Shown one piece after another: positions 1 to 19,238 of a stretch of 20,000 bases of DNA (within the stretch, counting starts at the first letter, position 1; each line of letters opens with the position of its first letter). Below the pieces are notes generated by a model. The model searched no databases. It was given only the letters and a program-made list of their open reading frames with translations, and was not told the origin of the DNA. Made by a program: the position numbers and the translations under genes. Origin of the DNA: an uncultured virus (IMG/VR IMGVR_UViG_3300048836_000122) (lineage: Duplodnaviria > Heunggongvirae > Uroviricota > Caudoviricetes); the IMG/VR virus record IMGVR_UViG_3300048836_000122, one strand, 5' to 3'.

Positions 1-80
1 GGTTAGGTAGTGGTAAAAGTAAAGAGCGTTCAGTAACTTACCAGGGGATTGCTGATGCTATTGCGGAACAATGGACGTAG
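1..80 (+). CDS. 3' end of a phage DNA cytosine methyltransferase-like protein (partial; cassette 1 of the array)
   Basis: Frame from nt 3 reads LGSGKSKERSVTYQGIADAIAEQWT* (TAG 78-80), resembling the C-terminal RSxTxxGIAxAxAEQW motif of small phage methyltransferase-like proteins. Only 25 codons are visible. Confidence 0.55.
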   Translation, partial: LGSGKSKERSVTYQGIADAIAEQWT

Positions 81-86
81 TATTAT

Positions 87-218
87 GGCTAACGTTTCGC
101 ATATTGCCGAAGGTGGCAATTTCGGAGCAGAAAACTTGAAACTTAAATAAATGTTTAACCGAAGCAAAAATGTTCACTTAACCACAGACCTGCCACTTTT
201 GGCAATATGCTGTTATGT
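87..218. repeat. attC-like hairpin site 1
   Basis: GGCTAAC (87-93); left arm GCATATTGCCGAAGGTGGCA (99-118) pairs with right arm TGCCACTTTTGGCAATATGC (191-210) with 2 G.T pairs; GTTATGT at 212-218. Confidence 0.8.
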
Positions 219-245
219 GCCGTTTTTCTTCACAAATTAATAAAT

Positions 246-503
246 ATGAACTGGAAAAGATACCGTTTAAAAACTTATGCTGTTAGCGACAACAGACCGT
301 TAATCTTCAATCCTAAATATCCTTGGTGGTGTTCAGGTTATGGTGAAGATGAAAAAGGCGAATACTCTGTAATAATTGCGTATTTACCAAAGGATGAAGA
401 TTTATTAAAGTATTGGGATGATGCTTTTGATGTGGAATTTACAGAAGAAGAAAGCATAAGTTTTTCTGATAGATTTCCGAAACCGAGTTACTTCGTGTCT
501 TAA
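246..503 (+). CDS. hypothetical protein (cassette 2)
   Basis: 85-aa ORF from ATG 246 after an AT-rich leader; alternative in-frame ATG at 207 in the hairpin arm; the stop overlaps the cassette terminal inverted repeat. Confidence 0.8.
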   Translation: MNWKRYRLKTYAVSDNRPLIFNPKYPWWCSGYGEDEKGEYSVIIAYLPKDEDLLKYWDDAFDVEFTEEESISFSDRFPKPSYFVS

Positions 504-506
504 AAT

Positions 507-604
507 GGCACATAACGTTTTGCGGCTTGGCGAAGGCTGCCTAACGATATTTTTAATATTCGCACGAATTTCATGGCAGCTTTTGCCAAACCGCTGTTAT
601 GTGC
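507..604. repeat. attC-like hairpin site 2
   Basis: GGCACATAAC (507-516); left arm GCGGCTTGGCGAAGGCTGCC (522-541) pairs with right arm GGCAGCTTTTGCCAAACCGC (575-594); GTTATGTGC at 596-604. Confidence 0.8.
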
Positions 605-660
605 TTCAAGAATACAAGCAATGGTTAATTGATAAACGTCTGGTTAAGGAGGTTCAGTAG
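598..660 (+). pseudogene. remnant 3' end of a cassette gene (deleted cassette 3)
   Basis: Reads YVLQEYKQWLIDKRLVKEVQ* with TAG directly before the next AAC site, as in the intact cassettes. The cassette is only ~78 bp and its two ends are not complementary. Confidence 0.45.
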
Positions 661-664
661 CCTT

Positions 665-781
665 GCAGGTAACGTTTAGTATAAAAAACAATAAACTTTC
701 GGATATGACAAACGATAATAAAAAACAAAAACTTTCGGACAGCACGGACACCGCTATTGACGGTTATACATTGTTACCTGC
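665..781. repeat. degenerate attC-like site 3
   Basis: GCAGGTAAC (665-673) ... GTTACCTGC (773-781); only GTATAA (679-684)/TTATAC (764-769) of the inner stem pairs, and the CGAAGG/CTTTTG motif is missing. Confidence 0.6.
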
Positions 782-980
782 CGTTTTTTGTCACAGGATT
801 AGAGCAGGAAAGTATTATGTCAAAATTGGCGAACACGAATACGAAATTTACAATCACGGGTATTATCCACCTGATAAATGTATTTGGTGGGAAGCGACAA
901 ACTTGAAAACGAATGAAGCTGATTTTCACGAACACACCAAATTTCAACTATTAGAAACTATGAAACGTGAACTGTCTTAA
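705..980 (+). CDS. hypothetical protein (cassette 4), start codon inside site 3
   Basis: 91-aa ORF MTNDNKKQK...TMKRELS; the only in-frame ATG within the cassette body is near the C-terminus; stop abuts the terminal inverted repeat. Confidence 0.7.
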   Translation: MTNDNKKQKLSDSTDTAIDGYTLLPAVFCHRIRAGKYYVKIGEHEYEIYNHGYYPPDKCIWWEATNLKTNEADFHEHTKFQLLETMKRELS

Positions 981-983
981 AAT

Positions 984-1118
984 GGCAGGTAACGGCTGAC
1001 GCTATACGAAGGCAGGGGTTAAGATGCACTCCCTTTCAGCCTTGCATAAATGATAAAAGATGCACACCGCTCACTTTAGCAGTACGCCCCTGCTTTTGTA
1101 TAGCGTATGTTATAGGGC
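984..1118. repeat. attC-like hairpin site 4
   Basis: GGCAGGTAAC (984-993); left arm ACGCTATACGAAGGCAGGGG (999-1018) pairs with right arm CCCCTGCTTTTGTATAGCGT (1087-1106) with 2 G.T pairs; GTTATAGGGC at 1109-1118. Confidence 0.8.
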
Positions 1119-1134
1119 GTTTTATTTTAATTGT

Positions 1135-1356
1135 ATGGAATTTTACGGAAGTATCAGAATAAAAAAAGCTGCCACTTTACAAAGTTGGATTGATAAGGGA
1201 TGGTATCAAAAAGAGATTGATAAGGGATATACATTTGCACCTGCTTGTGGTAGATTTCGTATTGGCAAGTGCGAATGTTCAAGATGTCAAAGACCTAACG
1301 GTGGATGGGAGAAGAAAGCTGTTTTGGAGCGTAACGGTCTTTTAAATGCCCTATAA
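1135..1356 (+). CDS. small Cys-rich hypothetical protein (cassette 5)
   Basis: 73-aa ORF with C-x7-CxCxxC, a possible metal site; upstream in-frame ATG at 1060 in the site 4 loop; TAA stop lies within the terminal ...CCCTATAAC. Confidence 0.7.
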   Translation: MEFYGSIRIKKAATLQSWIDKGWYQKEIDKGYTFAPACGRFRIGKCECSRCQRPNGGWEKKAVLERNGLLNAL

Positions 1357-1408
1357 CTCCTATATGTATCAAACCCTCACAATTTATTATAAACCAAACA
1401 ATTGCATT

Positions 1409-1633
1409 ATGAATATCGGAAAGTATGTACAACAGTATTCCGAAGACCTTCGGCTCAAGAATTACGCTGAGAATACCATCAGGAATTATGCCGCGCAGGT
1501 GGATTCCTTTCTTAGACATTTCCAGTCGGTGGCTACCAAACCCAGCGAAATATCTGAGCGACAGATCAAAGCATGGTTGGCTAAGACAATTAATACGCGT
1601 AAACATCGCTTATCAGTATTGGAAAGGTGTTAA
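1409..1633 (+). pseudogene. truncated tyrosine recombinase (N-terminal SAM-like domain only)
   Basis: MNIGKYVQQYSEDLRLKNYAENTIRNYAAQVDSFLRHF...PSEISERQIKAWL fits the LRxxxYSxxTIxxY...FL...P..I...I..WL pattern of integron/phage integrase N-terminal SAM-like domains. It stops after 74 aa and I see no catalytic domain downstream. Confidence 0.75.
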
Positions 1634-1696
1634 AGATGCGATTTCGTCTTTTTAGCATTTCCGATAACTTTCTAAACAGTTCAAAAAATTGAACCA

Positions 1697-2104
1697 ATGA
1701 AAGCAATACTAATTAGTATAATTTTCCTACCAATACTCGGATATGGACAGATGATGGACGATTTTAGACGTTACATCCGGGCAGATACGGTGAAGTTTGA
1801 CACTATAAGGTATTTAGAGGATATGGTTCGAGAGTCATGGTGTGATTCATCAGCAGATATAAGATATGATTTAGAGGATTTGATTATTATTGACAAGTGC
1901 GAAATAAGAGGCCATGTATGGACACCCCACTATGTTACTGACTTAGTGTATTATCCAAACGAGGCAAGACTGGTTGATTCCGATAGCATGACAGTAATGA
2001 TTTACCCTGCAAAATACTCGTTTGAGAAGTGTGTGAGGTGTGGGGAAATCAAAAAAACGAAGGAAAGTGATGAAATTCACAAATTACTTTGGAGGAAAAA
2101 GTAG
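1697..2104 (+). CDS. exported hypothetical protein with signal peptide
   Basis: MKAILISIIFLPILGYG|Q looks like an SPI signal followed by Gln; C...GHVW...CVRCG suggests a zinc site; DTV/DTI/DSM motifs. Confidence 0.7.
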   Translation: MKAILISIIFLPILGYGQMMDDFRRYIRADTVKFDTIRYLEDMVRESWCDSSADIRYDLEDLIIIDKCEIRGHVWTPHYVTDLVYYPNEARLVDSDSMTVMIYPAKYSFEKCVRCGEIKKTKESDEIHKLLWRKK

Positions 2105-2154
2105 TATCTTTGAGTACGCAACCATAACGAGTTTAGAATAGGAAAATAAGAAGC

Positions 2155-3351
2155 ATGATTAAGTCACACGTCATAAAACTACACCCCACAAAGGGGCAGG
2201 AGGCTTTCTTCCGAAAGTCCTCTGGCGTGTCACGTTTTGCCTACAACTGGGCTTTACAGCGATGGAAAGAGATTTACGAAGAAACAGGAAAGGGTACATC
2301 GGCTTATAGCCTGATTAAGGAGTTGAATAGTATAAAGCGAGAGGAGTTTCCATGGATGATGGAGGTTGGGAAGTGTGCGCCACAATATGCAATTCATAAC
2401 TTGGAAAGTGCATTTAAGCGATTCTTCAAGAAAAACGCCAAGTACCCTGTATTCAAGAAGAAGGGTCGGAAAGATTCTTTTGTGGCGGTTGAGAATAAAG
2501 AGCAATTCAAGCAGTCTGGACTAAAATTATGGATACCAAGATTGGGATGGGTGAGATGTGCGGAGGAGTTACGATTTAATGGGAAGGTAAATAACATGAC
2601 GGTGAAGCGCATAGCAAATATGTGGTTTGCCGTGGTAAACGTAGATACCCAGGTACAACCTACAGTATGTGAGAACCAAACTGTTGTAGGCGTGGACTTG
2701 GGTATTAAATATATGGCTGTGTGTAGCGATGGACGAGTATTCGAGAACCCCAAATCTCTTTCTAAGAGATTAGAGGCGTTGCGGACAGCGCAGCGAAAGT
2801 TGAGCCGGAAGCAGAAAGGTTCCTCCAATTGGAAAAAGCAGGTAGCACGAGTTGGCAGGATTCACTACAAAGTGACTTGCGCTCGAAAGAATGCAATACA
2901 CCAAGCAACGTCAGAGATAGTAAAATCGGCAGGCGTAATCGTATTGGAGGACTTAAATGTTAAGGGAATGGCCCGAAACAAAAAGTTGGCCAGAGCGGTT
3001 AGCGATGCAGGGATGGGTGAATTTCGCAGACAGATCGAGTACAAAGCATCATGGGCCGGAGTAGAGGTAGTAATTGTAGATCGGTGGTTTCCATCATCTC
3101 AATTAGACCACAAGACCGGAGAGCGACACAGCATCACACTAAAAGACCGAATGATATATCATTCGGATGGAACAAGTACATGCCGGGACTTAAATGCGGC
3201 AATGAACTTAAAGAACTACTATACCGGGAAAGTCTCGGGAATAAACGCCTCCGGAGTTGATGTAAGACCTGTTTTACAGGCAAGCGACGATGAACGAGGA
3301 ATTGGATTTGTTAACAATAAAATCTTAAAACTTTGGCTAAGATCATCTTAA
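2155..3351 (+). CDS. tnpB: RNA-guided endonuclease TnpB (IS200/IS605/IS607 family), no tnpA in window
   Basis: N-terminal IKLHPT...SRFAYNWAL, PVFKKK, RuvC motifs VGVDLG, VLEDLNV and RDLNAAMNL with all three acidic residues present. Confidence 0.95.
   Translation: MIKSHVIKLHPTKGQEAFFRKSSGVSRFAYNWALQRWKEIYEETGKGTSAYSLIKELNSIKREEFPWMMEVGKCAPQYAIHNLESAFKRFFKKNAKYPVFKKKGRKDSFVAVENKEQFKQSGLKLWIPRLGWVRCAEELRFNGKVNNMTVKRIANMWFAVVNVDTQVQPTVCENQTVVGVDLGIKYMAVCSDGRVFENPKSLSKRLEALRTAQRKLSRKQKGSSNWKKQVARVGRIHYKVTCARKNAIHQATSEIVKSAGVIVLEDLNVKGMARNKKLARAVSDAGMGEFRRQIEYKASWAGVEVVIVDRWFPSSQLDHKTGERHSITLKDRMIYHSDGTSTCRDLNAAMNLKNYYTGKVSGINASGVDVRPVLQASDDERGIGFVNNKILKLWLRSS
3220..3312 (+). ncRNA. probable omegaRNA scaffold / element right end overlapping the tnpB 3' end (boundaries approximate)
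   Basis: Hairpins CCGGGA-aag-TCTCGG (3224-3238) and CCTGT-ttt-ACAGG (3268-3280), CCTC (3248-3251)/GAGG (3296-3299) pairing, and an ACGCCT.GGAG...GTAAGACC...TGAAnnAGGAA layout typical of tnpB 3' ends. Confidence 0.6.
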
Positions 3352-3935
3352 ACGCAGGTCACGGAGGGATTACTTTAAAGAAAGGCTATGTAACGCCTGG
3401 GAAAAGAGGCCCACTTGGACACCGAGGACAAATCTTTGAAGGCATGAGCAACCGAGGCTTAGTACATGAGCTGGCGTATTTTCTTTCCTTAAAAGGCCAT
3501 ACAGTAGAAGTAATAAGTCACAGCACTCTTGATACATCAGTTGGATCAAGAGGTCGCTATGCCCAAGAAATCAAAGGAGACTTACTGTTGGACTTTCACT
3601 CGAATGCCATATCAGATGTAGAGTTCAGAGACTATACAGGCTTTGAACTATGGACAACCGAAGGAGAAACGCCAAGTGATCACTTTGCAAAGCACATAGC
3701 CAAGGGATTAAAATCATCCTATCCTCATGTAAGATGGCGGCATGGTCCGGGGATGGAGGACGACAAGGAAAAGAACTTTTCGTTAATTTACATGGCCGAA
3801 AAAGTCGGCACGAAAGCCGTCTTAGTAGAAACCTTGTTTATGGACGGAGTTCAGGACTACAATTATTTGACGGACGCTATGTGGAGGGCGAAGTATGTAG
3901 AGAATTTTTGCAACATAATTCACAAATACCAATGA
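3333..3935 (+). CDS. N-acetylmuramoyl-L-alanine amidase (Amidase_3), probable endolysin
   Basis: IILNAGHGG, E in IFEGMSN, DFHSNA and AVLVETLFMD are the Zn-ligand and catalytic motifs of Amidase_3; TTG start. Confidence 0.9.
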   Translation: MAKIILNAGHGGITLKKGYVTPGKRGPLGHRGQIFEGMSNRGLVHELAYFLSLKGHTVEVISHSTLDTSVGSRGRYAQEIKGDLLLDFHSNAISDVEFRDYTGFELWTTEGETPSDHFAKHIAKGLKSSYPHVRWRHGPGMEDDKEKNFSLIYMAEKVGTKAVLVETLFMDGVQDYNYLTDAMWRAKYVENFCNIIHKYQ

Positions 3936-3978
3936 AAACACTAATCCTATTCGTCCAAGCATCTGCAAAGCGAGTGAA

Positions 3979-4536
3979 ATGACGGCGGGTATTAATTATG
4001 TCCTTATCGAACCGGACCCGGATAATACCGATTTACATGGAGTGCGCATGAGTGGCGAATTTGACCAAGAACGAATGTGGTCGGTTTATGGCACGGTAAA
4101 AGCACTGCCATCAAAGCTGTGGTTTCATCCACTTACCGGCAACCTGGAAATTGATCGCTGGATCACCGACAAGAGTTTGGAATGGGAAACGGACATGGAA
4201 CTCAAAATAGGCGACCGAGTGCTATTCAGGTACAATGCCTGGATGGACGAAGAAGGCCTAAGCACCTCCGGCATGATGGTAAAATACGATGCGATATATG
4301 CCAAGCTGGATCCAGTTACTCCTTTAAACGGATATGTATTCGTAGATGACGAAGGGAATGTCAAGTATAAGGGAGGGTTAAACAAAAGGTATCTTCACTA
4401 TCCAGAAAGGGAAGATGGGGAAATCGGAACTAAAATATATCCTGTGAGGCGTAGCGTTCGCATGGAAGCAGACGAGTTTGCTAAAATGGGGTTACGCAGG
4501 ATGCAACGAAAAGAAATTTTGTGTTATGAAAAGTAA
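3979..4536 (+). CDS. GroES-like phage protein
   Basis: NYVLIEP...GTVKALP...ELKIGDRVLF...VKYDAIYA resembles a GroES fold, followed by a second partial repeat (PLNGYVFV). Confidence 0.6.
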   Translation: MTAGINYVLIEPDPDNTDLHGVRMSGEFDQERMWSVYGTVKALPSKLWFHPLTGNLEIDRWITDKSLEWETDMELKIGDRVLFRYNAWMDEEGLSTSGMMVKYDAIYAKLDPVTPLNGYVFVDDEGNVKYKGGLNKRYLHYPEREDGEIGTKIYPVRRSVRMEADEFAKMGLRRMQRKEILCYEK

Positions 4537-4762
4537 AAACGAAAGCTGGCCGACAGCAAAACCGACAATTGGAGAAGAAAGAGTACGGACGGACTTCAAC
4601 CCCTTAAAGAACGGCAGGATTGATGAAATTAAGCAAAAGACCGCTGAATTGATTAATTTGTGCGAAGAATTAAAGGCGAGGGACGGTCGATTAGCTTCAT
4701 TGGCTCAAACAGCTTATGAGGAGGCGGCAATGTGGGCGGTAAAAGCGACTTCAACCCCTTAA
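4526..4762 (+). CDS. small helical-hairpin protein, Acb2/Tad1-like candidate
   Basis: 78 aa; IDEIKQKTAELINLCEEL...RLASLAQTAYEEAAMWAVKA resembles the RxxxxAxTxxExAxMWxxKA hairpin of Acb2/Tad1-like phage proteins. Confidence 0.5.
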   Translation: MKSKNESWPTAKPTIGEERVRTDFNPLKNGRIDEIKQKTAELINLCEELKARDGRLASLAQTAYEEAAMWAVKATSTP

Positions 4763-4775
4763 AGGACGGCACGAT
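4592..4775 (+). repeat. 29-bp direct repeat (4592-4620 and 4747-4775)
   Basis: GACTTCAACCCCTTAAAGaACGGCAgGAT versus GACTTCAACCCCTTAAAGgACGGCAcGAT, 27/29 identical. Confidence 0.9.
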
Positions 4776-4829
4776 CAAGATACAAGAATTAAGATGAACT
4801 TATTTCTCCCGTGGATTACGAGAGAGCGG

Positions 4830-4863
4830 AGGGGATAGTCTGAGCAGCTATCCCCTTTTTTTT
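4830..4863 (+). terminator. intrinsic terminator
   Basis: AGGGGATAG (4830-4838)/CTATCCCCT (4848-4856) stem followed by a T run. Confidence 0.8.
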
Positions 4864-4893
4864 GCTATGTATGAAATAATATATATATCTTTG
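4861..4893 (+). promoter_or_regulatory. Bacteroidota primary-sigma promoter
   Basis: TTTG (4861-4864), 21 nt spacer, TATCTTTG (4886-4893) matches the TTTG-N19-21-TAnnTTTG consensus. Confidence 0.7.
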
Positions 4894-4897
4894 TACG

Positions 4898-5455
4898 GTG
4901 AAGTACCCAATAGTAAACGGAATGGCAAAGGCATATCCTGAACTTCAACCGTTACAGGACTACTACATGCGCGACATGTCTGCTAAAGAAGCAGATGGGT
5001 TGCTAAAATACTTCTCAGTCCTAACGGACAGAGAGAACAAAGAAAGGACAATCAAAGGGAGAGAAAACCTGGCGCTGAAAGCATCACCGGGAATTGAGAT
5101 CATCGTAAACGGATCCAGAGAACAAGGAGAAGCAAAGTACTCAAACAAGTACAATGAATATCTGACTTCATGGTTCAAAATCGTTTACGATATCAAATTA
5201 AGTATATGGTTTGGGCTCAAGACAGCACTACACAACCAGGTCAATTACTTATTACAACCATTGGACCAGACCGATGTAAATCGAGAGGCCGAAGGACGTA
5301 AGAAAATTGCAAAAGAAATCGAAGACCTGCAAGCCCGTGTAGAGCGAATGGAGCGAGACCTGTTTAATCCCGAACAGAAAAAGATTGTCAATGAAACTTT
5401 GGAGAAACATAGTTTTGCTGGTTATAGCGAGCTTTTTGCTATCAACCGTAACTAA
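4898..5455 (+). CDS. hypothetical helical protein (possible terminase small subunit, weak)
   Basis: 185-aa ORF, GTG start, C-terminal coiled coil; first gene after the promoter. The TerS idea rests on size and position only. Confidence 0.6.
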   Translation: MKYPIVNGMAKAYPELQPLQDYYMRDMSAKEADGLLKYFSVLTDRENKERTIKGRENLALKASPGIEIIVNGSREQGEAKYSNKYNEYLTSWFKIVYDIKLSIWFGLKTALHNQVNYLLQPLDQTDVNREAEGRKKIAKEIEDLQARVERMERDLFNPEQKKIVNETLEKHSFAGYSELFAINRN

Positions 5456-8400
5456 AGGTCAAGAACTGATTAAAATAAATGACACGCTCTATCGTGCCAC
5501 TAAAGACGTACCGATTATCATATCGGTAAACAGCACCTCCGTATATTTAGAAACCACAAATTTCGGCAGAGAACAGGCCAATGTTCCGCTGGACACAATC
5601 CTCGCAAGAGCATGCACTAAATATTTCAAGGCAACCCTTCAAGACGGAAGGGTTTATGCATTTAATAAAGACTTTGTGAGGCGAGTAGCATCCCGGACCA
5701 ACAACCGGTCGTATGTGTATATGATACACACTCCCACAAGGTATGACATTATAGAAAGCGTATCCGTATTGGCACAGCGAATGGCATTATGCGGAGGCGT
5801 AGATGTGTTTGAGTATCAAGAACTGTACTTACAAGGCGATTCATTATACATAACCAACGGAAACGGTGTACCATTGGATAGCATGCTCGAAGGAATAAGC
5901 TACACCGCCGGAACAGGGATAGACATTACCGCTAACCGGATTACAAACACCGGAGACACTAATCCGCTGGATGACGTGCTAAAGACCACAAACCACGACG
6001 GAGACGTAACCGGAGTATATAATATGCTGGTCGTTAAAGATGGGGCTATTACGATAAATAAGCTGGACAGTCTAAACGTGCTTACATGGATCATCGATAA
6101 TTTCCCACTGATTGATTCAACAAGGTTCGACACTACAAACATTCTCACATGGATATACAACCACGTAGATACAACGGATTTAGACGAGCAAACCTTATAC
6201 ATTCAAGGCGATTCGCTCTACATAACCAATGGCAACGGTATTCCATTAGATTCCATCAGAAGTGGCGAACTGCCTGGTGGTGAAAGAGGAGAGACTTTAT
6301 GGTACGATGGAACTGATTGGATTGTAGATAGCTCGATTTACAACGATGGCGCTCAAGTAGGCGTACATGCACCGTTGATATGGCCTGGAACGATGACGGT
6401 CTATGGAGACACGATCATGACATTTTCGGGAGACACGACCTACATGCGAGTGATCACGAAAGGAAACAATATCTGGTTTGACTACAAAGGCGAATGGTTT
6501 ATAATTAAGGATTCTACTGAACTCACGGGAGGTTTTGGAGTCCGAAGTGGAACGCTAAAGCCACGGTACGAAGTAGCTATTCCAGGTCGAATAACCATTG
6601 GAGGCATCCACGACAACTCTACAGGAGAATCAAATGCGATGTTCTTTGGCCAAGATGCCATGACAGGGTCTATTTTAGATGCCGCTCCAACAGGAACATC
6701 TACGTACAACACGATCAAAATAGCTGGACAAATCAACCAGTTCAGCGGAACAGGCGTAACGAGGGGAATTCTAATCCAACCAGCTATCAACGGAGCCGCA
6801 GATTATAGAGGTATAGAAATCGCCAACAGTTCAGGTATAGGCATAAGACAGTCCGGAGAACTTGTCACCAATAGAATATTTGGGAAAACATCATTTGGAT
6901 CACTACTAACCCCAGCGAGAGCAGTACACAACTATGGACAGACCCGGCTACAAACACCGGTCACCGGAGCCGATGGACTTGCCGGGATTCACCTGGCTAA
7001 CGGAGACGTAGCACACGTTGCGTTAGGAGGAGGTCTGTACATGAGTGGAGACACCTTGTATAGCACAGCATTTGGCGACGATGGCTTAAACGGAGAAGGA
7101 GTACCGAATTACCTTGCAAAATGGACCCCGGATTCAACATCACTTGGGATAAGTCAGTTTTATGACAACGGTACCAACATGGGTCTGAACAACACTGCGC
7201 CGGTGCGAAAACTTGATGTAACCGGTGACATGCGAGTAAGTGGATCGGTAGATACGGCATCCGCATCAAAGGTATGGGTCGGAAATGCAGCCGGAGACTT
7301 GCGGAAAGTGAACATGGGCTCAGACTTAATTGTCCAAGGTGATTCCATAAAAGTAGTAGGCGGAGTGGCCGGAGATGGAAGTCCATACTACCTGGCACGA
7401 TGGGCACCAGACTCCACCACTCTGAATACATCCACGGTATATGACAGTTTCAGAGTAGGGATAAACACGAAAGTGCCGGATGCCGCATTAGAAGTGCGAG
7501 GAGACGCAAACGATGTCAATCTATTCAGAATAGCCAGACAAGAAGGAGATAAACTGTACGAAGTGGACAGCACAGGCGCCATGTTCATCGGAAACGCCAG
7601 TACAAGGTCATATATTTACCCATACGGAGGGTCTTCAACGCCAAACATCAACAATAGAGGGATTGGTTTTTATTCAAGATCCACAGTTACGTTGGGGCAT
7701 TATTTCGGAGGAATCAATGTAGGTAATTCAGCCGGAACATATCCATCAATACTTGCAGAAAGGACATGGAACCCGGCATCAGGATCAGGAACATTCAAAT
7801 TACTTGAACTAAAACCTACCATAAACCAAGGCGGCAGCGCAACCGGGCGATCCTATGGATTGTATATCGAGCCAGTGCTTACAAGTTCAGCAGAATGGAT
7901 AGGAGCCTATACAACCGGGACAGACGGCACCGGATTCCTGCAAGAAGGGTCATCCCAGACAAACCGATTTGAAGGGAACACAACCATTGGTTCCGCAATT
8001 GCAGGAGTAAGAACAGGGCAGATTACCGGAGATTTCCGAGTAACAGAGGATGTAGATACTGCAACGGTATCAAACCTTTGGGGGGCGAATACACTTGGCG
8101 ACTTCAATAAAGTATTAATTGGGTCAGGCTTAGACGTGACAGGAGACAGCATCTCCGCAAGTTATTATTGGTCATTGGAAGATGGAGCAGAAGCCACGTC
8201 ATTTTTGGAGGGTGATGTGTTGACAGTACTTGGAACAGGAAGCGTAACAGCTACTTTGGACACAGCAACCAAGACCCTAACTATAAACGGAGCAGGACCG
8301 GCCGGAGATGGAGGAGAAACGAACTTGGGGCTAAATGTTGGCCCGGGTGAAGAAATTTATAAAGGGAAAACCGACACTACGCTGTTGTTTAGGACATTGG

Positions 8401-9947
8401 TGGACCAAGGTATTGCAGAGGTCAACCAGGTTGGAGATTCAGTCATTATAAATGTACCGGCTCAAACATTGTCGGTTAGTAATGATTCAATTTTCATAAG
8501 TTTAGGAAATGGCGTAAAGGTGCCAAATGTTCCGGCAAATGGCACGGTTTTGAATTCGACATTAAGATGGAGCGGATCGGCATGGGTTGAAAACGATTCT
8601 CTATTGGTGAATGCAGACGGAGAAGCCGCAGCCGGGGGAGCAGCGATAAATACAGCAAGGAGCATAGTCACGACCAAGGATGTAGAAATAAATACGATAA
8701 GAGTAGGAACAGGAAACAGCAGTGTTCCAGGTAATACGGCCGTAGGCGTAAGGGCGCTGAACGTGATTGGTGCTTTGGGAGGAGATAATACAGCAATTGG
8801 ATACGAAACATTGCAAGGATTAACAGGAAATGCTTCAAGGAATACAGCTGTGGGCATGGAAGCGCTGAGAACGGCGAATTCCGGCGGTGCCAACACAGCC
8901 ATAGGTCGCCAAGCATTAAGAAGCTCCACAAACGCCTCCGAGAATACAGCATTGGGAGGACTTGCACTATTCTCTACATCAACGAGCGGATCAAATGTTG
9001 GAGTAGGATACGAAGCCGGGCGCACATTGTCGGGAGCAGGGAGGACATTTAATACAGTCATGGGGCATAATGTTGGGCGCAATGGATTGTATGCAAATTC
9101 CACCTTTTTAGGAGCCGCAGCGGGATTCAATTCCAGTTCAAGTAATAGCGTATTTATCGGAAGAAATGCCGGGTTTAGCGTAAACAAGGACTCGACCTTA
9201 CTTATTGACGTGACCAGCGATACTGTTGCGACCATCGTAGGCGATTTCAGAGGCAGAAAAGTAGGTATTAACCGCAACCCTTTCGGGATTGCTCGAAGGC
9301 TGGATGTAGGCGGTGACTTGCGGGTTCGGGATGACGTTGATAGCACCACGGTCACGCAGTTTTGGGCAGGGAACTTGGAAGGCGATTTAAAAAGAATGTA
9401 TATTGGAGATGGTCTTGGAATTGTTGGCGATACGATTAAGGTGACGTATGTTGAGCAGCCTCCAAGTCCATATATTCTAGCACAGAACGAAAGTATATCG
9501 CCATATACAGATACGATTGCAAGTAACAATTCCAAGAATATACGATTTCCAAATATTGGTCCTTCGCAAGATTGGGTGCTGTCAGCCAATCAAATTGAAT
9601 ACCAAGGTTTAGACTCACTTATGTCAAAAATACATGTAGAGGTTGACTTATCTGCATCAAACGGTACCTTGATAGAGTTTCGATTAAGAGCAAACGTATT
9701 TGGAGGCACCTCAATGGACGTGATACATCGCAGAAGAATAAGCCTAAACGGAGATATTACTAATATTTCGTTGGATTATTTGTATGGGGTAGCACCTGAT
9801 GGTCTATTTTGCCCTAGCTCAGGTGCGGCCAGTTTGTTTGATGTCGAGATAACCAATGTGTCCGGAGATCAACGAACATTTACCATTTACACAGCGAGTA
9901 TATCCAATATAAAGGTTGGAGAATACGAACCTACCTGCCCACTTTAA
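5391..9947 (+). CDS. large fibre/adhesin-like protein with signal peptide
   Basis: MKLWRNIVLLVIASFLLSTVTKG|Q signal; QxLxxxGDSLYITNGNG repeats; GINTxxP/LDVxGD fibre motifs; about 10 NTAxGxxAL (YadA-head-like) repeats near 8730-9190; Gly/Thr/Ser rich. Confidence 0.8.
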   Translation: MKLWRNIVLLVIASFLLSTVTKGQELIKINDTLYRATKDVPIIISVNSTSVYLETTNFGREQANVPLDTILARACTKYFKATLQDGRVYAFNKDFVRRVASRTNNRSYVYMIHTPTRYDIIESVSVLAQRMALCGGVDVFEYQELYLQGDSLYITNGNGVPLDSMLEGISYTAGTGIDITANRITNTGDTNPLDDVLKTTNHDGDVTGVYNMLVVKDGAITINKLDSLNVLTWIIDNFPLIDSTRFDTTNILTWIYNHVDTTDLDEQTLYIQGDSLYITNGNGIPLDSIRSGELPGGERGETLWYDGTDWIVDSSIYNDGAQVGVHAPLIWPGTMTVYGDTIMTFSGDTTYMRVITKGNNIWFDYKGEWFIIKDSTELTGGFGVRSGTLKPRYEVAIPGRITIGGIHDNSTGESNAMFFGQDAMTGSILDAAPTGTSTYNTIKIAGQINQFSGTGVTRGILIQPAINGAADYRGIEIANSSGIGIRQSGELVTNRIFGKTSFGSLLTPARAVHNYGQTRLQTPVTGADGLAGIHLANGDVAHVALGGGLYMSGDTLYSTAFGDDGLNGEGVPNYLAKWTPDSTSLGISQFYDNGTNMGLNNTAPVRKLDVTGDMRVSGSVDTASASKVWVGNAAGDLRKVNMGSDLIVQGDSIKVVGGVAGDGSPYYLARWAPDSTTLNTSTVYDSFRVGINTKVPDAALEVRGDANDVNLFRIARQEGDKLYEVDSTGAMFIGNASTRSYIYPYGGSSTPNINNRGIGFYSRSTVTLGHYFGGINVGNSAGTYPSILAERTWNPASGSGTFKLLELKPTINQGGSATGRSYGLYIEPVLTSSAEWIGAYTTGTDGTGFLQEGSSQTNRFEGNTTIGSAIAGVRTGQITGDFRVTEDVDTATVSNLWGANTLGDFNKVLIGSGLDVTGDSISASYYWSLEDGAEATSFLEGDVLTVLGTGSVTATLDTATKTLTINGAGPAGDGGETNLGLNVGPGEEIYKGKTDTTLLFRTLVDQGIAEVNQVGDSVIINVPAQTLSVSNDSIFISLGNGVKVPNVPANGTVLNSTLRWSGSAWVENDSLLVNADGEAAAGGAAINTARSIVTTKDVEINTIRVGTGNSSVPGNTAVGVRALNVIGALGGDNTAIGYETLQGLTGNASRNTAVGMEALRTANSGGANTAIGRQALRSSTNASENTALGGLALFSTSTSGSNVGVGYEAGRTLSGAGRTFNTVMGHNVGRNGLYANSTFLGAAAGFNSSSSNSVFIGRNAGFSVNKDSTLLIDVTSDTVATIVGDFRGRKVGINRNPFGIARRLDVGGDLRVRDDVDSTTVTQFWAGNLEGDLKRMYIGDGLGIVGDTIKVTYVEQPPSPYILAQNESISPYTDTIASNNSKNIRFPNIGPSQDWVLSANQIEYQGLDSLMSKIHVEVDLSASNGTLIEFRLRANVFGGTSMDVIHRRRISLNGDITNISLDYLYGVAPDGLFCPSSGAASLFDVEITNVSGDQRTFTIYTASISNIKVGEYEPTCPL

Positions 9948-9957
9948 ACAACAAAAC

Positions 9958-10308
9958 ATGAAGTACTTATTTTTAATTATCGCATTATTTGGAGCATTCG
10001 GACTAACAGCACAAGTCACGGACGCATCACCAATTGACACCGCCTATGTTCTTGTAGAAACAGGCGAAGTTGAATCAGAACTGTACAGTAGGTTAAACTA
10101 CGTCACAGTATCCGGGGGCTACATAACCCAGGAGCGGACACCTCCGGAGTTAGCCACACCATTTATGGTCCGGCTACTGGCAGATCAAGCGCAATGGGGA
10201 CAAGCAATAACAAACATCGATGCAGAGATAGCGGCATTACAAGAGAAAAAAGCTATCTATGAAGGGATAAAGGGAGTTATTGACGCAACCATAACCAGTC
10301 TCGAATGA
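9958..10308 (+). CDS. exported protein with signal peptide and C-terminal coiled coil
   Basis: MKYLFLIIALFGAFGLTA|Q; ITNIDAEIAALQEKKAIYEGIK heptad pattern. Confidence 0.75.
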   Translation: MKYLFLIIALFGAFGLTAQVTDASPIDTAYVLVETGEVESELYSRLNYVTVSGGYITQERTPPELATPFMVRLLADQAQWGQAITNIDAEIAALQEKKAIYEGIKGVIDATITSLE

Positions 10309-10826
10309 AGTGGTATCAGTTTGAAGATGGGATGCTGCTAAAATTGGCCGCAGCAATAACCGCAGTAGGCGTAATGTTGCGTCCGCTAAAGACAGTGTTC
10401 ACTTATTTGTGGAACACCAAAGAGCGAGTGGATAAGTTGGATGAAATCCACAGGGAGGTTACCGCTGATGGTGGCATGACCAAGCGGCACCAAGAGCTAA
10501 CAGAATCCGTTAGGCACATAGAAGCCTTAACGGTAGCTCAAATGGATTTTCAGACGCTCCCACAGTTTATATGCGATAACACCGGCAGAAACTATTATGT
10601 AAACCATGCCTATGCAAAACTATTTGGAGTATCCAAGGATGCGTTAATGGATTATTCATGGAAAGACTACATCTATACACCCGAATACATGGAATATGTA
10701 GAGACACGCATGAGCGAAGGGAGGCATATTAATTATGAATTCGAAAAATACCTGGTGTCGATGATACCTATCATTTTAAAAACAGGCAAACCCGGATATG
10801 TCGGGACTATTGAAATTAAAAACTAA
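10305..10826 (+). CDS. membrane-anchored PAS-domain protein
   Basis: N-terminal hydrophobic helix, helical linker, then PQFICDNTGRNYYVNHAYAKLFGVSKDALMDYSW, a PAS signature; no output domain. Confidence 0.75.
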   Translation: MKWYQFEDGMLLKLAAAITAVGVMLRPLKTVFTYLWNTKERVDKLDEIHREVTADGGMTKRHQELTESVRHIEALTVAQMDFQTLPQFICDNTGRNYYVNHAYAKLFGVSKDALMDYSWKDYIYTPEYMEYVETRMSEGRHINYEFEKYLVSMIPIILKTGKPGYVGTIEIKN

Positions 10827-10836
10827 ATCACTTATC

Positions 10837-11232
10837 ATGAAAGTAAAATCACTTAACATTTGGACGACAATTATTTCGATCATCATCGGACTACTGTTTA
10901 CATCTCAAGGAATTGAGGTTGACCTGGATCCGGAAAGCATTGCAACAGCCGTGACAACGAAAGAAGGCATGGCATTGATGTTGTATTTGGCAATGAACCT
11001 TGGAACACCCTTAATCAAGACGATCCAGCGTATCAGGACTAAAGGATATGATTGGAGGGCGGCCATTCTGAGCTCAAACTTGATTGCGCACTTAACCACC
11101 GCACTGGCTTTGATATTGTCGATGTGGTTAGATGCAGAAACAACCGGACTTATTATTGGTGTAGTAATTCAAACGGGGAACTATCTGTATCACCGATTTG
11201 GAGGGAAGCCATTACATAAGGCCATAGAGTAA
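10837..11232 (+). CDS. multi-pass membrane protein, holin-like
   Basis: 131 aa with about 4 hydrophobic segments and a basic C-terminal tail. Confidence 0.55.
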   Translation: MKVKSLNIWTTIISIIIGLLFTSQGIEVDLDPESIATAVTTKEGMALMLYLAMNLGTPLIKTIQRIRTKGYDWRAAILSSNLIAHLTTALALILSMWLDAETTGLIIGVVIQTGNYLYHRFGGKPLHKAIE

Positions 11233-11253
11233 GCCTCCTTTGTCCTGTCCTTG

Positions 11254-11284
11254 GCCCGTAGTGCGAAAGCGCTGCGGGCTTTTT
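11254..11284 (+). terminator. intrinsic terminator-like hairpin just upstream of terL
   Basis: GCCCGTAGTGC-GAAA-GCGCTGCGGGC (11-bp stem with 2 G.U, GNRA loop) followed by TTTTT. Confidence 0.75.
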
Positions 11285-11291
11285 GAGAATT

Positions 11292-13379
11292 ATGGAAGTA
11301 CGATATAAAATACCAGAGCATCCTATTTTAGACGATAGCCAATACGTATTGGACTACCGTGGTAAGTCCTATATGACAATCGGAGAGTATAAATGTATCA
11401 TTCCAAGGATGCCGGCTGAGAAGCACTTTTTAAATGCTGGGAGGAAAACTAAAGATCAGAAATTTGAACATACAATTATTCCAACAGGACTGAGAAGATC
11501 CTTTGATGAAGAAAAAATAGTACGCAGGGAGTATCATAGAAGATATCATGGCGTATGGATTATGCTAAACGGATCACCGTACTATATAACAGGCAGAGCA
11601 TACCACTTTTTTAATTACTGGACAACGACTAATGGAAAGCGTCCGGACTTTAGAATGGAAGCCGTAGAGTTCTATACTTTATGGGATGACATTTATATGG
11701 ACTTGGACTGTTATGGGCTTTTGGACATTAAATGCAGACGTTTAGGCGACACCGAAAAAGGACTGCACCTGGCATACGAAGAAATGACCCGTATGCGCAA
11801 CACCACGGTGGGGATGCAGCACATGAAAGAAGACGATGCTCAAAAGAACTATTTAAGGCTTGTCAATGGCCATAAATACATGGCATACTTCTTCCGGCCA
11901 CAATCAAGAGGTTCTACGGCCCCACAAAAGAAATTAGAGCTGCTATATCCAAGCCAAGCAATTACCGCTAAAAATGCCAAGGAAAAAGACTTGTTTGAAG
12001 ATGACCATGTACTCCCTTCATTAGGATCGTCTTGCGACTATGAAGTAACCAAGGTAAGGGCCTATGACGGTCAGAGGATTGAGTTCTATTTCGGAGACGA
12101 GTATGGTAAAATCGATCCCAAGGTAATGAACCAGCTTGAGCAATTGGGTGTGATCAGAAGGTGTATGAGTCTTAATAATGGCCGGGATATTATTGGAAAA
12201 GGCTACTTACCAACAACGGTCGAGGACGTATCGAATGGCACATCAGTAGAAATGATGCAAAAGCTATGGGATTACTCTGCTCCCGTCGAGGAAGGCAGAA
12301 CGATATCTGGACTTCGCAGAATATTCAGAGGATTCCAATTAGCCGCTGAATGCGATGAATACGGATTCCACAAAGTAAAAGAAGCCGAAGAATGGCGGGA
12401 TGAAGAAATACAAAAACTATTGGATGTAGGTGACTTTGCGGAAGTAATTAACTTGCAAAGAAAGCAACCCAAGGACGTTCATGAAGCCCTGCAGATTGCA
12501 GCAAGTGACTGTACCTTGAATCCTCACTTATTAGACCTCCGGTTGATGGAGATTAAAAAAGACCCACCGATCATCCAGGTAGGAAACTTGGAATGGACAG
12601 AAGGATTGGGATCAAATGTAGAATTCATTGCCCATCCAAAAGGCAAGTGGAGGATATCGCAGTTCCCATTAATTAAAAACAAGCGAGTTACTACTGACTA
12701 TGGATATGGACCAGGTAGCGGCCATGTATATGCCGCAGGAGGTGACCCTATTGATTCCAAAGCGAAAAAAGGATCAGAAGGAGCATTGGCCATATATCGA
12801 AAAATGAATATGGCCGCTGAGAGCAAGTGCGAAATCGACGTACATGGCAACATCATTGACACCGAGAACATGGTGACCAATCAGTTCGTATGTACATACC
12901 GCCACCGCCCAGACAACCCGGAGGACTACTTCCAAGACGCTCTCAAAACAGCTATATTCTACGGGGTACCGATCTTCTTTGAATTACAGAAGCCTTATGT
13001 AGTCAATAAATTCCGTGATGCCGGGTTTAACTCTTACCTGGCCAAAAGACCACGAGAAACAATATCAAACGTCAGAGAAAAAAACAACGCTTCAAGACAA
13101 GAAGGCGCAGCGGCTACTGGACCGATCATCAGTCTGTATGTAGATGCCCTCAAAGTGCATATTTCAAAAATGTGGAGGGCCTACAAAGACATTGACCAGC
13201 TAAGGGATTTTCGTAAATTCAACACAGACAACAGAGGGGAGCGAGATTTAACCGTTGCGTCCGGGTATGCTTTATTGTCCGGAATGGACTCAAGGATGAA
13301 AACAGAAATCGAGGACATGGCTAACAGATGGAATGAAGTTCCTTTCAAAAAAATCCCCAATAAACCGGTTCACGCATGA
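11292..13379 (+). CDS. terL: terminase large subunit
   Basis: YYITGxxYxFxNY, Walker A-like KCRRLGDT, Walker B FYFGDEYGK, nuclease motifs AGGDPID, FFELQK and DLTVASGYAL; directly upstream of a portal-sized gene. Confidence 0.9.
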   Translation: MEVRYKIPEHPILDDSQYVLDYRGKSYMTIGEYKCIIPRMPAEKHFLNAGRKTKDQKFEHTIIPTGLRRSFDEEKIVRREYHRRYHGVWIMLNGSPYYITGRAYHFFNYWTTTNGKRPDFRMEAVEFYTLWDDIYMDLDCYGLLDIKCRRLGDTEKGLHLAYEEMTRMRNTTVGMQHMKEDDAQKNYLRLVNGHKYMAYFFRPQSRGSTAPQKKLELLYPSQAITAKNAKEKDLFEDDHVLPSLGSSCDYEVTKVRAYDGQRIEFYFGDEYGKIDPKVMNQLEQLGVIRRCMSLNNGRDIIGKGYLPTTVEDVSNGTSVEMMQKLWDYSAPVEEGRTISGLRRIFRGFQLAAECDEYGFHKVKEAEEWRDEEIQKLLDVGDFAEVINLQRKQPKDVHEALQIAASDCTLNPHLLDLRLMEIKKDPPIIQVGNLEWTEGLGSNVEFIAHPKGKWRISQFPLIKNKRVTTDYGYGPGSGHVYAAGGDPIDSKAKKGSEGALAIYRKMNMAAESKCEIDVHGNIIDTENMVTNQFVCTYRHRPDNPEDYFQDALKTAIFYGVPIFFELQKPYVVNKFRDAGFNSYLAKRPRETISNVREKNNASRQEGAAATGPIISLYVDALKVHISKMWRAYKDIDQLRDFRKFNTDNRGERDLTVASGYALLSGMDSRMKTEIEDMANRWNEVPFKKIPNKPVHA

Positions 13380-15583: not shown

Positions 15584-15590
15584 CTTTGTA
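15571..15590 (+). promoter_or_regulatory. putative promoter (-7 box) for the scaffold-capsid genes
   Basis: AAATAATATA-TAACTTTG-TA with TAnnTTTG at 15581-15588 and the same context as 4874-4895; no TTTG -33 box seen. Confidence 0.5.
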
Positions 15591-15592
15591 AT

Positions 15593-16480
15593 ATGGAACA
15601 GAACTTGGAAGGATTATTAGATTCAATCGAAGAAGTAAATCCGACACCAACCGGGGAGGCCCCTGTTGAGAAGAAGGACAATTCCGAAATTGAAATACCA
15701 AAGCGAGAAGTATCCGGGGAGGCCCCGATTGCACCACAATACGCAAATGAAGTTGCCCGGCAGGTTGACGACATGTACCGTAAAGGAGCTACGACCGCAG
15801 AGGTGAACAACTTTTTGAGGCTTCATGCTGTGGACATCAGCACAATGAAGACAGAAGAACTCGTCAAGGAAGGTCTCAAATTAGAGTACCCAAACCTTAG
15901 TGCGGCTGACCTGGATGAACTATACGAAGAAACGTATGGAGAAACCACGGCAGCGTCCAAGGCCAGGCGAGAAAAAGATGCATCTGACTTCCGCAAAAAG
16001 ATAGCGGAAATGCAGTCAAATGCAAAAATGCCAGCTAAAGAGCAGGACCGATTAGTGAGTGAAGCAAGGCAGAAACAGTTAGCCCAAGATTGGACCGCTG
16101 TATCAGAGGCCGTTGTTGAACGTCAACTAAAGGAAGTTAGCTTTGATTTTTCCGATGATGGAGGGAAACATAGTTTTTCCTTTCCAGTAGATGACGGAGT
16201 CAAGGCAGCGTTGGTCGAAGCTGGCCGAGAGTTTGCATTAGCCCACAACCTAAAATTGGACAAGGCAAGCATCCCTCAAATACAAGAGCACATGAAACGT
16301 GTAGCTTTTTATTTGAAAGGACCAGAGATAGCCGAAGCAGCTATACGGGATGCCGTTGCAAAAGGGTTAAAGCTGGGTTTAAAGCAAAGGATCAATCCGC
16401 AGGCACCTCAGAATCAAAATCCGAGAGGTCAGCAAGAAGCTAATGGAATGGACAAAGTGAGGGCGAATCCATTTTCATAA
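15593..16480 (+). CDS. probable capsid scaffolding protein
   Basis: Acidic low-complexity N-terminus, helical, YPNLSAADLDEL motif; lies between portal and capsid genes. Confidence 0.6.
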   Translation: MEQNLEGLLDSIEEVNPTPTGEAPVEKKDNSEIEIPKREVSGEAPIAPQYANEVARQVDDMYRKGATTAEVNNFLRLHAVDISTMKTEELVKEGLKLEYPNLSAADLDELYEETYGETTAASKARREKDASDFRKKIAEMQSNAKMPAKEQDRLVSEARQKQLAQDWTAVSEAVVERQLKEVSFDFSDDGGKHSFSFPVDDGVKAALVEAGREFALAHNLKLDKASIPQIQEHMKRVAFYLKGPEIAEAAIRDAVAKGLKLGLKQRINPQAPQNQNPRGQQEANGMDKVRANPFS

Positions 16481-16499
16481 CTTCTAAACTAATACAAAA

Positions 16500-17996: not shown

Positions 17997-18002
17997 ATAA
18001 CC

Positions 18003-18030
18003 GGAGGGGGGCATTGCTCCCCTCCTTTTT
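18003..18030 (+). terminator. intrinsic terminator after the capsid gene
   Basis: GGAGGGGGGC-ATT-GCTCCCCTCC followed by TTTTT. Confidence 0.8.
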
Positions 18031-18044
18031 AAAATCATGAACGT

Positions 18045-19235: not shown

Positions 19236-19238
19236 ACT

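Follow-up and report, generated by a model that had tools for sequence, protein, structure and literature searches.

At one end of a 20,000-nucleotide (nt) stretch of DNA from an uncultured tailed virus (IMG/VR record IMGVR_UViG_3300048836_000122; Caudoviricetes; the whole stretch is called the window below), short open reading frames (ORFs) follow one another, each flanked by an inverted repeat that starts with GTT and ends with AAC. The question raised by this locus is what these units are and, if they move, where they are joined and which enzyme joins them. An earlier note on this DNA had likened them to the gene cassettes of integrons. We found that positions 1-1357 of the window are the integrase-proximal end of a phage integron-like gene-cassette array, and we place a probability of roughly 0.8 on the reading that its AAC-bounded cassettes are recombined as the folded + strand by an adjacent family of Xer-like enzymes.

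The earlier note had described three inverted-repeat pairs with one G.T each, and this description is borne out: GTTATGTGCCGTTTT at 212-226 is complementary to AAAATGGCACATAAC at 502-516, 773-787 is the partner of 979-993, and 1109-1122 is the partner of 1344-1357, with a G.T at position 11 from the GTT/AAC end as the sole non-Watson-Crick position in each pair. We counted as anchored pairs those GTT...AAC combinations 150-1500 nt apart in which at least 10 of 11 further positions are paired. Window positions 1-1400 contain four, namely, the three above at 11/11 and 212/993 at 10/11, the last because cassettes 2 and 4 have similar arms, and positions 1401-20000 contain none. Mononucleotide shuffles of 1-1400 (n = 300) gave a mean of 0.09 anchored pairs and a maximum of 2; 100 shuffles of the whole 20 kb gave a mean of 2.3, and it is therefore the placement of the pairs around each ORF, not the score alone, that exceeds chance. 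The outer arms of a single site are mismatched, as had also been observed, with GGCTAAC opposite GTTATGT in site 1 and GCAGGTAAC opposite GTTATAGGG in site 4.

The same pattern recurs in related arrays. Using sites defined by a covariance model (R1, described below) in 24 related viral loci together with the window and loci L001, L026, L028, and L037, we compared the GTT arm preceding each ORF with the AAC arm following it and found all nine of the positions beyond the core to be paired in 51 of 81 cassettes and at least seven of nine in 75 of 81. An earlier, cruder site detector had recovered such own-end pairing in 36/67. The two arms of one and the same site pair at 9/9 positions in only 1 of 82 cases, and arm pairs compared all against all do so in 93 of 6724. 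The proposal that a cassette must have its own ends joined for the outer stem to be complete, the stem in the array being mismatched, thus holds across the arrays (51/81 versus 1/82). Hybrid sites explain this pattern, in which the arms of one site differ and the arms around each ORF match.

Model R1 was built from 37 sites and searched on both strands of 31 sources totaling 310,801 bases (E up to 0.01; its E-values are rough). It recovered 86 sites, 49 of them outside the training set, and every one of the 86 has the orientation of the recombinase gene and lies upstream of it, with up to 12 or more sites per locus. Their layout in the relatives is AAC, a spacer of about 5 nt, stem, loop, stem, 1-2 nt, and GTT. 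Both AAC and GTT are invariant in the 37 aligned sites. In a MAFFT alignment of these sites, 96.1% of the tested-pair cells are paired versus 36-52% when the partners are slid, a figure that is partly circular since a stem detector had selected the aligned rows; no such circularity affects the variety of pair types. Changes on both sides occur in 12 of 14 inner-stem pairs, and the number of double-change cells, 185, compares with 63.7 +/- 6.2 in shuffles, none of 500 of which reached it. The sites are accordingly conserved in structure and not in sequence, as imperfect palindromes with AAC...GTT cores.

These palindromes differ between the two strands. Of the 37 sites, 36 have G.U in one inner-stem column, and position 11 of the outer stem is a G.T in 39 of 47 pairs and a Watson-Crick pair in none (these pairs having been chosen by strict Watson-Crick matching elsewhere); both fixed wobbles would be C.A mismatches on the opposite strand. 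The aligned stems have no conserved bulged bases, and the asymmetry lies in the 5-nt versus 1-2-nt spacers and the two fixed G.T wobbles. DNA folding favored the + strand in 30 of 36 sites in the array form and in 35 of 36 in the circle form, and the circle form was the more stable of the two in 35 of 36. The arrays, 39,640 nt in all, encode 101 ORFs on the + strand (31,203 nt) versus 26 on the - strand (4,869 nt), and the coding strand is the strand predicted to fold. As the sites would fold on the coding strand and lie upstream of the recombinase gene, the cassette genes face the attI-like site and the recombinase gene.

Where a cassette begins and ends can be read from the junction next to the recombinase gene and from shared cassettes. 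The final cassette ends in ...TAAC straight against an attI-like stretch in all 24 relatives and in the window, with no site centre between them, and the site centre therefore belongs to the downstream ORF: a cassette consists of a site centre, a GTT arm, an ORF, and an AAC arm. Assigning the centre to the upstream ORF, which would correspond to the classical drawing on the + strand, is contradicted by the attI junctions and by the borders of shared cassettes. The cassette starts proposed earlier consequently lie one site-centre too late, cassette 2 being 94-516, not 212-516, and cassette 5 being 994-1357, not 1109-1357.

Several shared cassettes show that such units have moved, as the earlier note had held. 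Window positions 990-1357 recur without a single difference in two contigs of one study, one of 29,267 nt (run X1) and one of 443 nt (run X4), with flanks that differ before 990 and after 1357. A 1027-nt cassette is shared at 92.9% by L012 (3002-4028) and L025 (4922-5948); both copies end in ...TAAC, which is followed by a site centre in L012, where the cassette is internal, and by the attI-like stretch in L025. Site 2 and cassette 3 match positions 5741-6077 of L001, a 642-kb phage record (LR756502.1), with different neighbors on either side. The homologue of cassette 1 in L111 retains the arm TATTATGGCTAAC and then continues into a different site centre, the divergence beginning about 10 nt past the AAC. 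Of the nine inter-array similarities located outside the attI region, eight have their start no more than 17 nt from an AAC end. The crossover, which had been placed at GTT/AAC, is upheld in its AAC half, within TAAC on both sides of the cassette and on the coding strand; at the GTT, exchange was never shown. The position is resolved to within TAAC, inside which the exact bond is not distinguishable.

The attI-like arrangement, which precedes the ATG of the recombinase gene by about 50 nt, is TAAC followed by T-CTAT-TGTA... and is present in 24/24 viral loci, the window, L026, L029, and L037. In the window it occupies 1358-1408 on the + strand, the 51 nt that separate the final AAC from the start codon of the recombinase, beginning TCCTATATGTA.... 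In the 642-kb record, which holds a three-site mini-array without a recombinase gene, there are two attI-like units of 66-70 nt (L001 5689-5754 and 6078-6147), each bounded by AAC arms and ending in ATGGCGCATAAC; they look like ORF-less cassettes derived from an attI remnant and the first bases of a lost recombinase gene.

The gene that follows the attI-like stretch in the window (1409-1633, + strand) encodes residues 1-74 of a 278-amino-acid (aa) Xer-like tyrosine recombinase (Pfam Phage_int_SAM_4, E 4.8e-10) and is 93% identical to residues 1-74 of the family member P0002. A tblastn search with the closest full-length relative found residues 1-74 only and none of the remaining residues in the 20-kb window, and the gene is therefore truncated; codon 74 is followed, within 1634-3351, by an ORF of 135 aa and a TnpB/OrfB_IS605 gene. 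The family itself is large, with 386 relatives detected, mostly of 267-279 aa among the matches listed, and intact members are encoded by 24 viral contigs in IMG/VR. An alignment of 14 members shows no variation in the catalytic R, K, H, R, H, and Y columns. P0002 aligns end to end with the archaeal XerA (4a8e) and with XerD. Its alignment with the integron integrase VchIntIA (2a3v) is in two pieces, with 18 query residues (180-197) opposite 61 residues of the chain (182-242). Among NCBIfam models, the best match is XerA_Arch (192.4 bits/cutoff of 220), ahead of XerD (164/330) and XerC (154/335), and the integron-integrase models TIGR02249 (157.6/265) and PRK15417 (97/435) also remain below their cutoffs. 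By these sequence comparisons, the full-length enzyme family is classified as Xer-like, without the IntI-specific insertion, and not as IntI. The integron likeness drawn earlier thus stops short of the enzyme.

Beyond the viral contigs, the best relative of the recombinase among INPHARED phages is 33% identical, and a scan of genome contigs returned mostly relatives of about 40% identity, which appear to be a different subfamily. At five loci from Chitinophaga, Sediminibacterium, and Flavobacterium (L047, L071, L080, L090, and L104), such ~40%-identical recombinases, apparently N-terminally extended, are accompanied by three to seven AAC...GTT stem sites that lie downstream of the gene and score on both strands; these may represent a related chromosomal system with a different layout. 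A further protein, P0102 (292 aa), combines the first ~100 residues of the recombinase with a NUMOD4/HNH_3 homing-endonuclease-like protein, which suggests that a nuclease gene was inserted into the recombinase gene.

On the basis of these observations, the following cycle can be conceived. A site in the array is a hybrid, its AAC arm contributed by the upstream cassette and its centre and GTT arm by the downstream cassette. If two sites recombined within their TAAC, a circle would be released, in which the AAC arm of the cassette would be joined to its own centre and GTT arm to form an outer stem of 14-15 bp with the fixed G.T at position 11. The coding (+) strand would then fold as a single strand, and a Xer-like tyrosine recombinase without the IntI insertion would exchange the folded strand with the attI-like site beside its own gene, the product presumably being resolved by replication. 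New cassettes would thereby enter directly upstream of the recombinase gene, and their genes, pointing to the attI-like site, would be read along with other phage genes. The array in the window, whose own gene retains 74 codons, would be movable only with an enzyme from elsewhere. More broadly, we lean toward the view, held less firmly than our reading of the array itself, that phages of Bacteroidota-type hosts carry an integron-like capture system of their own that evolved, or persists, without the IntI insertion, which is regarded as the key to single-strand recombination. In it, a plain Xer-like enzyme would act on folded coding-strand hairpins, with the fixed wobbles and an asymmetric spacer as the strand selector in place of extrahelical bases, and the cassettes would form an exchangeable pool of accessory and antidefense genes (DNA methyltransferases, Mom, TET-associated glycosyltransferase, and Acb2/Tad1 sponges) that face the recombinase gene.

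Several points weigh against this account of the array. The recombinase of the window is truncated and nothing in the window shows current activity, and the array is therefore probably static unless the enzyme is supplied from elsewhere. No circle junction occurs in the contigs of four runs, where all listed joints are skips; only contigs of these runs, representing small shares (0.06-0.11), were covered, and contigs cannot show rare forms. One of the nine inter-array similarities starts 42 nt before the AAC. The similarities of L011/L025, L024/L025, and L011/L024 cover a site centre that is common to different cargo, and two of these three centre-only similarities stop at GTTAT; they could reflect exchange at the GTT arm too or merely a conserved family of centres, and we read them tentatively as the latter, by analogy with chromosomal integrons. 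Six of the 81 cassettes pair at fewer than seven of nine positions; our tentative explanations for the exceptions are the truncated cassette 3 of the window, two missed sites, and the attI-like remnant in L001. The 36 folded sites were chosen with G.T allowed on the + strand, which biases the strand comparison, and the position-11 count is unbiased for the outer stem only. Finally, a site from the Polaribacter phage P12002L has been recombined by the classical integrase IntI1, and this, together with six weak R1 matches in that phage, indicates that a classical integrase could use such sites.

This last point leads to a first alternative, that the sites are ordinary attC sites in a cluster of attC sites without an integrase (CALIN), left behind or serviced by an IntI of the host, with the Xer-like gene as a bystander, such as a phage integration enzyme. 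The cores, TAAC/GTTA, are as in RYYYAAC/GTTRRRY, and the logic of the cassette ends is classical. Moreover, phage CALINs are published: the passages covered of Qi et al. (2023; PMC9892861) report attC clusters found in phage genomes with IntegronFinder and HattCI, including that of P12002L, with 17 CALINs in Supplementary Table S1, some of which may be further members of the present system, and one P12002L site that IntI1 inserted into attI1 in Escherichia coli. A filter-free R1 search of 11.5 kb of P12002L gave six matches with an E-value of <0.01 (7.5e-7 to 2.9e-3), all intergenic, on the coding strand, and beside methyltransferase and Mom genes; with default filters, R1 found no match there, the recombinase family is absent from this phage, and the own-end rule failed in the one P12002L cassette checked. 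Such a reading must, however, contend with the facts that the end of each of the 24 viral arrays coincides exactly with a conserved stretch, about 50 nt ahead of the start codon of the Xer-like gene, and that every one of the model matches lies upstream of this gene and on its strand. The gene orientation is also opposite to the classical one, integron cassettes that face the promoter having reportedly never been seen (Nivina 2016), and complete integrons are described as very rare in Bacteroidetes in the part covered of the IntegronFinder 2.0 paper. We therefore regard a host IntI as an unlikely agent.

Three alternatives remain. As every site lies on the transcribed strand and the two fixed wobbles would be G.U pairs in RNA, the sites might be RNA-only structures, that is, sense-strand hairpins that process or stabilize transcripts or terminate transcription between phage genes, with the matching ORF ends as a property of the RNA. 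This would leave unexplained the identical cassettes that break at AAC in different contexts, the attI-like stretch, and the recombinase; in addition, no Rfam family was matched in the window at gathering thresholds, and a terminator-like scan of positions 1-3400 found five sites versus 2.3 +/- 1.7 expected, of which the single one on the + strand lies inside a site loop. Counts in the promoter and terminator scans of this region are close to the shuffle expectation. We consider an exclusive RNA function very unlikely; an RNA role alongside recombination is possible. Still less probable is that each ORF with its inverted repeats forms a small transposon resembling a miniature inverted-repeat transposable element (MITE) that inserted into a hairpin target, with the repeats as transposase ends, even though 14-15-nt repeats, from a GTT start to an AAC end, flank each ORF and a TnpB gene lies nearby (2155-3351). 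The shared mobile units take in the upstream centre, their start being the AAC of the site before it and not the GTT repeat; the repeats differ between cassettes with compensating changes in both arms, as suits a structure rather than a sequence bound by a transposase; and it is a tyrosine recombinase and no transposase that accompanies the arrays. That the three repeats are chance matches in AT-rich intergenic DNA derives some plausibility from the whole-window shuffles, which yield about 2.3 anchored pairs at 10/11, and is refuted for all practical purposes by the concentration of four pairs in 1-1400 and none in the other 18.6 kb, by the mean of 0.09 in shuffles of 1-1400, and by the own-end rule in 75/81 cassettes of related arrays.

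A recombined phage array of AAC-bounded cassettes, then, is the reading that we compare with known systems. Like classical integrons, it has single-gene cassettes in a row, with imperfect palindromes between them that keep their structure while their sequence varies; AAC/GTT cores with the crossover in AAC, on the strand that folds better via G:T pairs; own ends that match in the circle form; an insertion site beside the recombinase gene; and susceptibility to secondary-site events that can truncate a cassette. The first bases of a classical cassette reportedly match its own inverse core, according to work of Hall in 1991 and Stokes in 1997. The differences concern the enzyme, the orientation, and the site. 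The 18 residues found opposite 61 of VchIntIA mark an enzyme without the IntI insertion. The cassette genes here are on the folding strand and point to the attI-like site, whereas classical ones point away from attI and are read from a promoter at attI/intI, and the + strand is thus the counterpart of the classical bottom (folding) strand and yet also the coding strand. No extrahelical bases, which direct the choice of strand in classical integrons, were observed here, and the spacer asymmetry and the two fixed wobbles may take their place as the strand selector. Further, the outer stem is 14-15 bp long versus 7 in classical integrons, and the carrier is a phage. With the phage CALINs, the arrays share attC-like sites between small accessory genes of virulent phages and a DNA methyltransferase cargo; the passages covered of that report (PMC9892861) mention no dedicated Xer-like recombinase, such an attI-like site, or reversed genes.

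With respect to Xer/dif systems, it is the enzyme that connects, being closest in sequence to XerA, XerD, and XerC. These systems use one double-stranded site per replicon for dimer resolution, unlike the arrays of long hairpins beside the enzyme's own gene seen here; the enzyme scores below the XerC, XerD, and XerA equivalog cutoffs and its sites stand in arrays, which sets it apart from a single-site Xer/dif system. AAC arms such as ATGGCGCATAAC resemble the XerC arm of E. coli dif. A likeness of another kind exists to the promoter-early stem-loop (PeSL) cassettes of the hyperplastic regions of T4-type phages, reportedly described by Arbiol and colleagues in 2010, in that small phage accessory genes between repeated stem-loops are shuffled among related phages there too. 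PeSLs are promoter-plus-hairpin motifs thought to recombine by homology, and they are not known to have a dedicated recombinase, AAC/GTT cores, or own-end complementarity. The pdif modules are flanked by sites in alternating or opposite orientation, unlike the present sites, of which 86/86 have one orientation. Xer-dependent pdif modules are known from Acinetobacter plasmids (PMC7399989, in the portion covered). A search of the open-access full-text literature turned up no account of this Xer-like enzyme together with a phage array.

We now turn to the individual features of the array in the window, all on the + strand, in which R1 found sites at 79-226, 502-610, and 979-1123, a degenerate one at 659-787, and no others. 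Cassette 1 is represented by its 3' end (1-93), with the last 25 codons of a probable DNA methyltransferase, the stop codon at 78-80, and an AAC arm at 81-93. A degenerate DNA pattern derived from the peptide retrieved five full-length relatives of its product (L106-L110), all outside arrays; the homologue in L110 matches phrog_757, annotated as "DNA methyltransferase" (E 1e-59), and has no Pfam match. The homologue in L111, a contig that begins within the gene, is 88.8% identical over 98 nt and has the same terminal arm. Exact 45-mer scans of viral contigs and of metagenome contigs did not recover the window's own contig. By the rule of the family, cassette 1 should start at roughly GTTAGCCATA-G-TA, after a site centre and a further AAC arm, with the wobble at position 11; the earlier note had placed it at position 8. 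Site 1 (79-226) runs from the AAC arm of cassette 1 to the GTT arm of cassette 2; between them lie a 20-bp inner stem around a 72-nt loop and two spacers, of 5 nt on the AAC side and 1 nt on the GTT side. Its inner stem, a repeat at 99-118/191-210 that is 90% complementary, carries a GAAG/TTTT wobble block, and R1 scores the site at 103 bits (E 2.7e-20; a training sequence).

Cassette 2 as redefined (94-516) comprises the centre of site 1 (94-211), a GTT arm (212-226), an ORF (246-503; 85 aa from 246, with an alternative start at 207), and an AAC arm (502-516); its own arms are paired at 9/9 positions, and its borders are placed by analogy with the shared cassettes elsewhere. In contigs of other runs, arms nearly identical to those of cassette 2 (211-231 and 497-516) surround a different 223-nt interior (joint 231->497), and a different 311-nt cassette lies between site-1-like and site-2-like flanks (joint 112->508); the different interiors between cassette-2-like arms are either divergent alleles or different cargo. 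Site 2 (502-610) is of a short type with a 79-nt centre (R1 68 bits, E 2.2e-12; a training sequence) and is 83% identical over 101 nt to L001 5741-5841.

Cassette 3 (517-673) is 5' truncated: between the centre of site 2 and an AAC arm (665-673), only ~70 nt from the 3' end of an ORF remain. Window positions 597-673 are 97.4% identical to L001 6001-6077, where the complete counterpart extends from GTTACCTGC (5833) to GCAGGTAAC (6077) with a 61-aa ORF, and the window copy is joined at TTATGT, within the ORF of this counterpart. Its own ends pair at 5/9 positions, as expected of a truncated unit. The truncation looks like a secondary-site event, by analogy with that described for IntI1 inside blaVEB-1 (PMC3518468, in the part covered). 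The degenerate site 3 (659-787) has a short inner stem (R1 33 bits, E 1.8e-4; outside the training set), and its loop holds a 20-nt direct repeat (684-703/720-739, 85% identical). Cassette 4 (674-993) comprises the centre of site 3, a GTT arm (773-787), an ORF (705-980; 91 aa) that begins in the site-3 loop and runs across the GTT arm, and an AAC arm (979-993); its terminal repeat of 15 nt is 93% complementary. Site 4 (979-1123) has an inner repeat at 999-1018/1087-1106 that is 90% complementary (R1 84.8 bits, E 3.6e-16; a training sequence). Cassette 5 (994-1357), with the centre of site 4, a GTT arm (1109-1122), an ORF (1135-1356) coding for 73 aa with four Cys, and an AAC arm (1344-1357), adjoins the attI-like stretch. 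The ORFs of cassettes 2, 4, and 5 belong to no Pfam or PHROG family.

The 20-kb window as a whole is phage DNA. Among its genes are those for a large terminase (11283-13376), an amidase endolysin (3333-3935), a portal-like protein, and virion proteins, the terminase, portal, and endolysin genes all lying downstream of the array. Behind the truncated recombinase gene are the 135-aa ORF (1697-2104), of unknown function and with a hydrophobic N terminus, and the TnpB/OrfB_IS605 gene (phrog_506, E 9e-108); a TnpB 34% identical to the latter is encoded at L026 10033-10971. Searches of 19 window proteins against all loci with tblastn matched nothing beyond the recombinase fragment, a single TnpB relative, and a single Acb2-like gene; the array module occurs in phage backbones unrelated to one another. 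Named sources of recombinase relatives are Flavobacterium and mostly Bacteroidota assemblies.

A Pfam scan of the cargo of the related arrays covered 97 of the 101 ORFs on the + strand; the other four, from the window, were scanned separately. Matches with an E-value of up to 0.001 were found in 14 of the 97, two of them below Pfam's own cutoffs, and none in the other 83. They include an N6_N4 DNA methylase, Mom, a TET-associated glycosyltransferase, and Acb2/Tad1, as well as HAD_SAK_2, GNAT, and dATP/dGTP pyrophosphohydrolase domains. The window has an Acb2/Tad1-like gene outside the array (4478-4762), a stretch 71% identical to it over 63 aa lies just upstream of the L029 recombinase gene (7704-7892), and the last cassette of L017 (5605-5895) is an Acb2/Tad1-domain ORF; the gene is therefore both a cassette and an ordinary phage gene. 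The short metagenome contig L111 (1-1178) holds two consecutive DNA methyltransferase cassettes, of which the first is the cassette-1 homologue and the second encodes an N6_N4 methylase (Pfam 111.6 bits) and is bounded by GTTAGCCAT...GTGGCTAAC as its own ends. The short sites between the cassettes have a GTTTTAAT loop that is present also in P12002L.

Own-end complementarity is the classical footprint of an integron cassette, and its significance lies in its setting. The match of own ends provides sequence-level proof of cassette mobility and the correct definition of a cassette for this array, which to standard integron finders would be no more than an orphan attC cluster. With the AAC-to-AAC rule and the covariance model, cassettes can be excised from metagenomes as units. 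Clusters of attC sites in phages are already published; what distinguishes the present array is its link to a Xer-type recombinase and its reversed gene orientation. If the adjacent Xer-like enzyme indeed drives the array, single-strand hairpin recombination would have no need of the IntI insertion, the I2 helix of which is treated as an innovation in the part covered of a 2020 eLife paper (PMC7790495), and this would bear on the origin of integrons from Xer-type enzymes. Bacterial integrons have been reported as stores of defense genes (bioRxiv 10.1101/2024.07.02.601686, in the portion covered); on the same condition, phages would for their part keep exchangeable stores of counterdefense genes.

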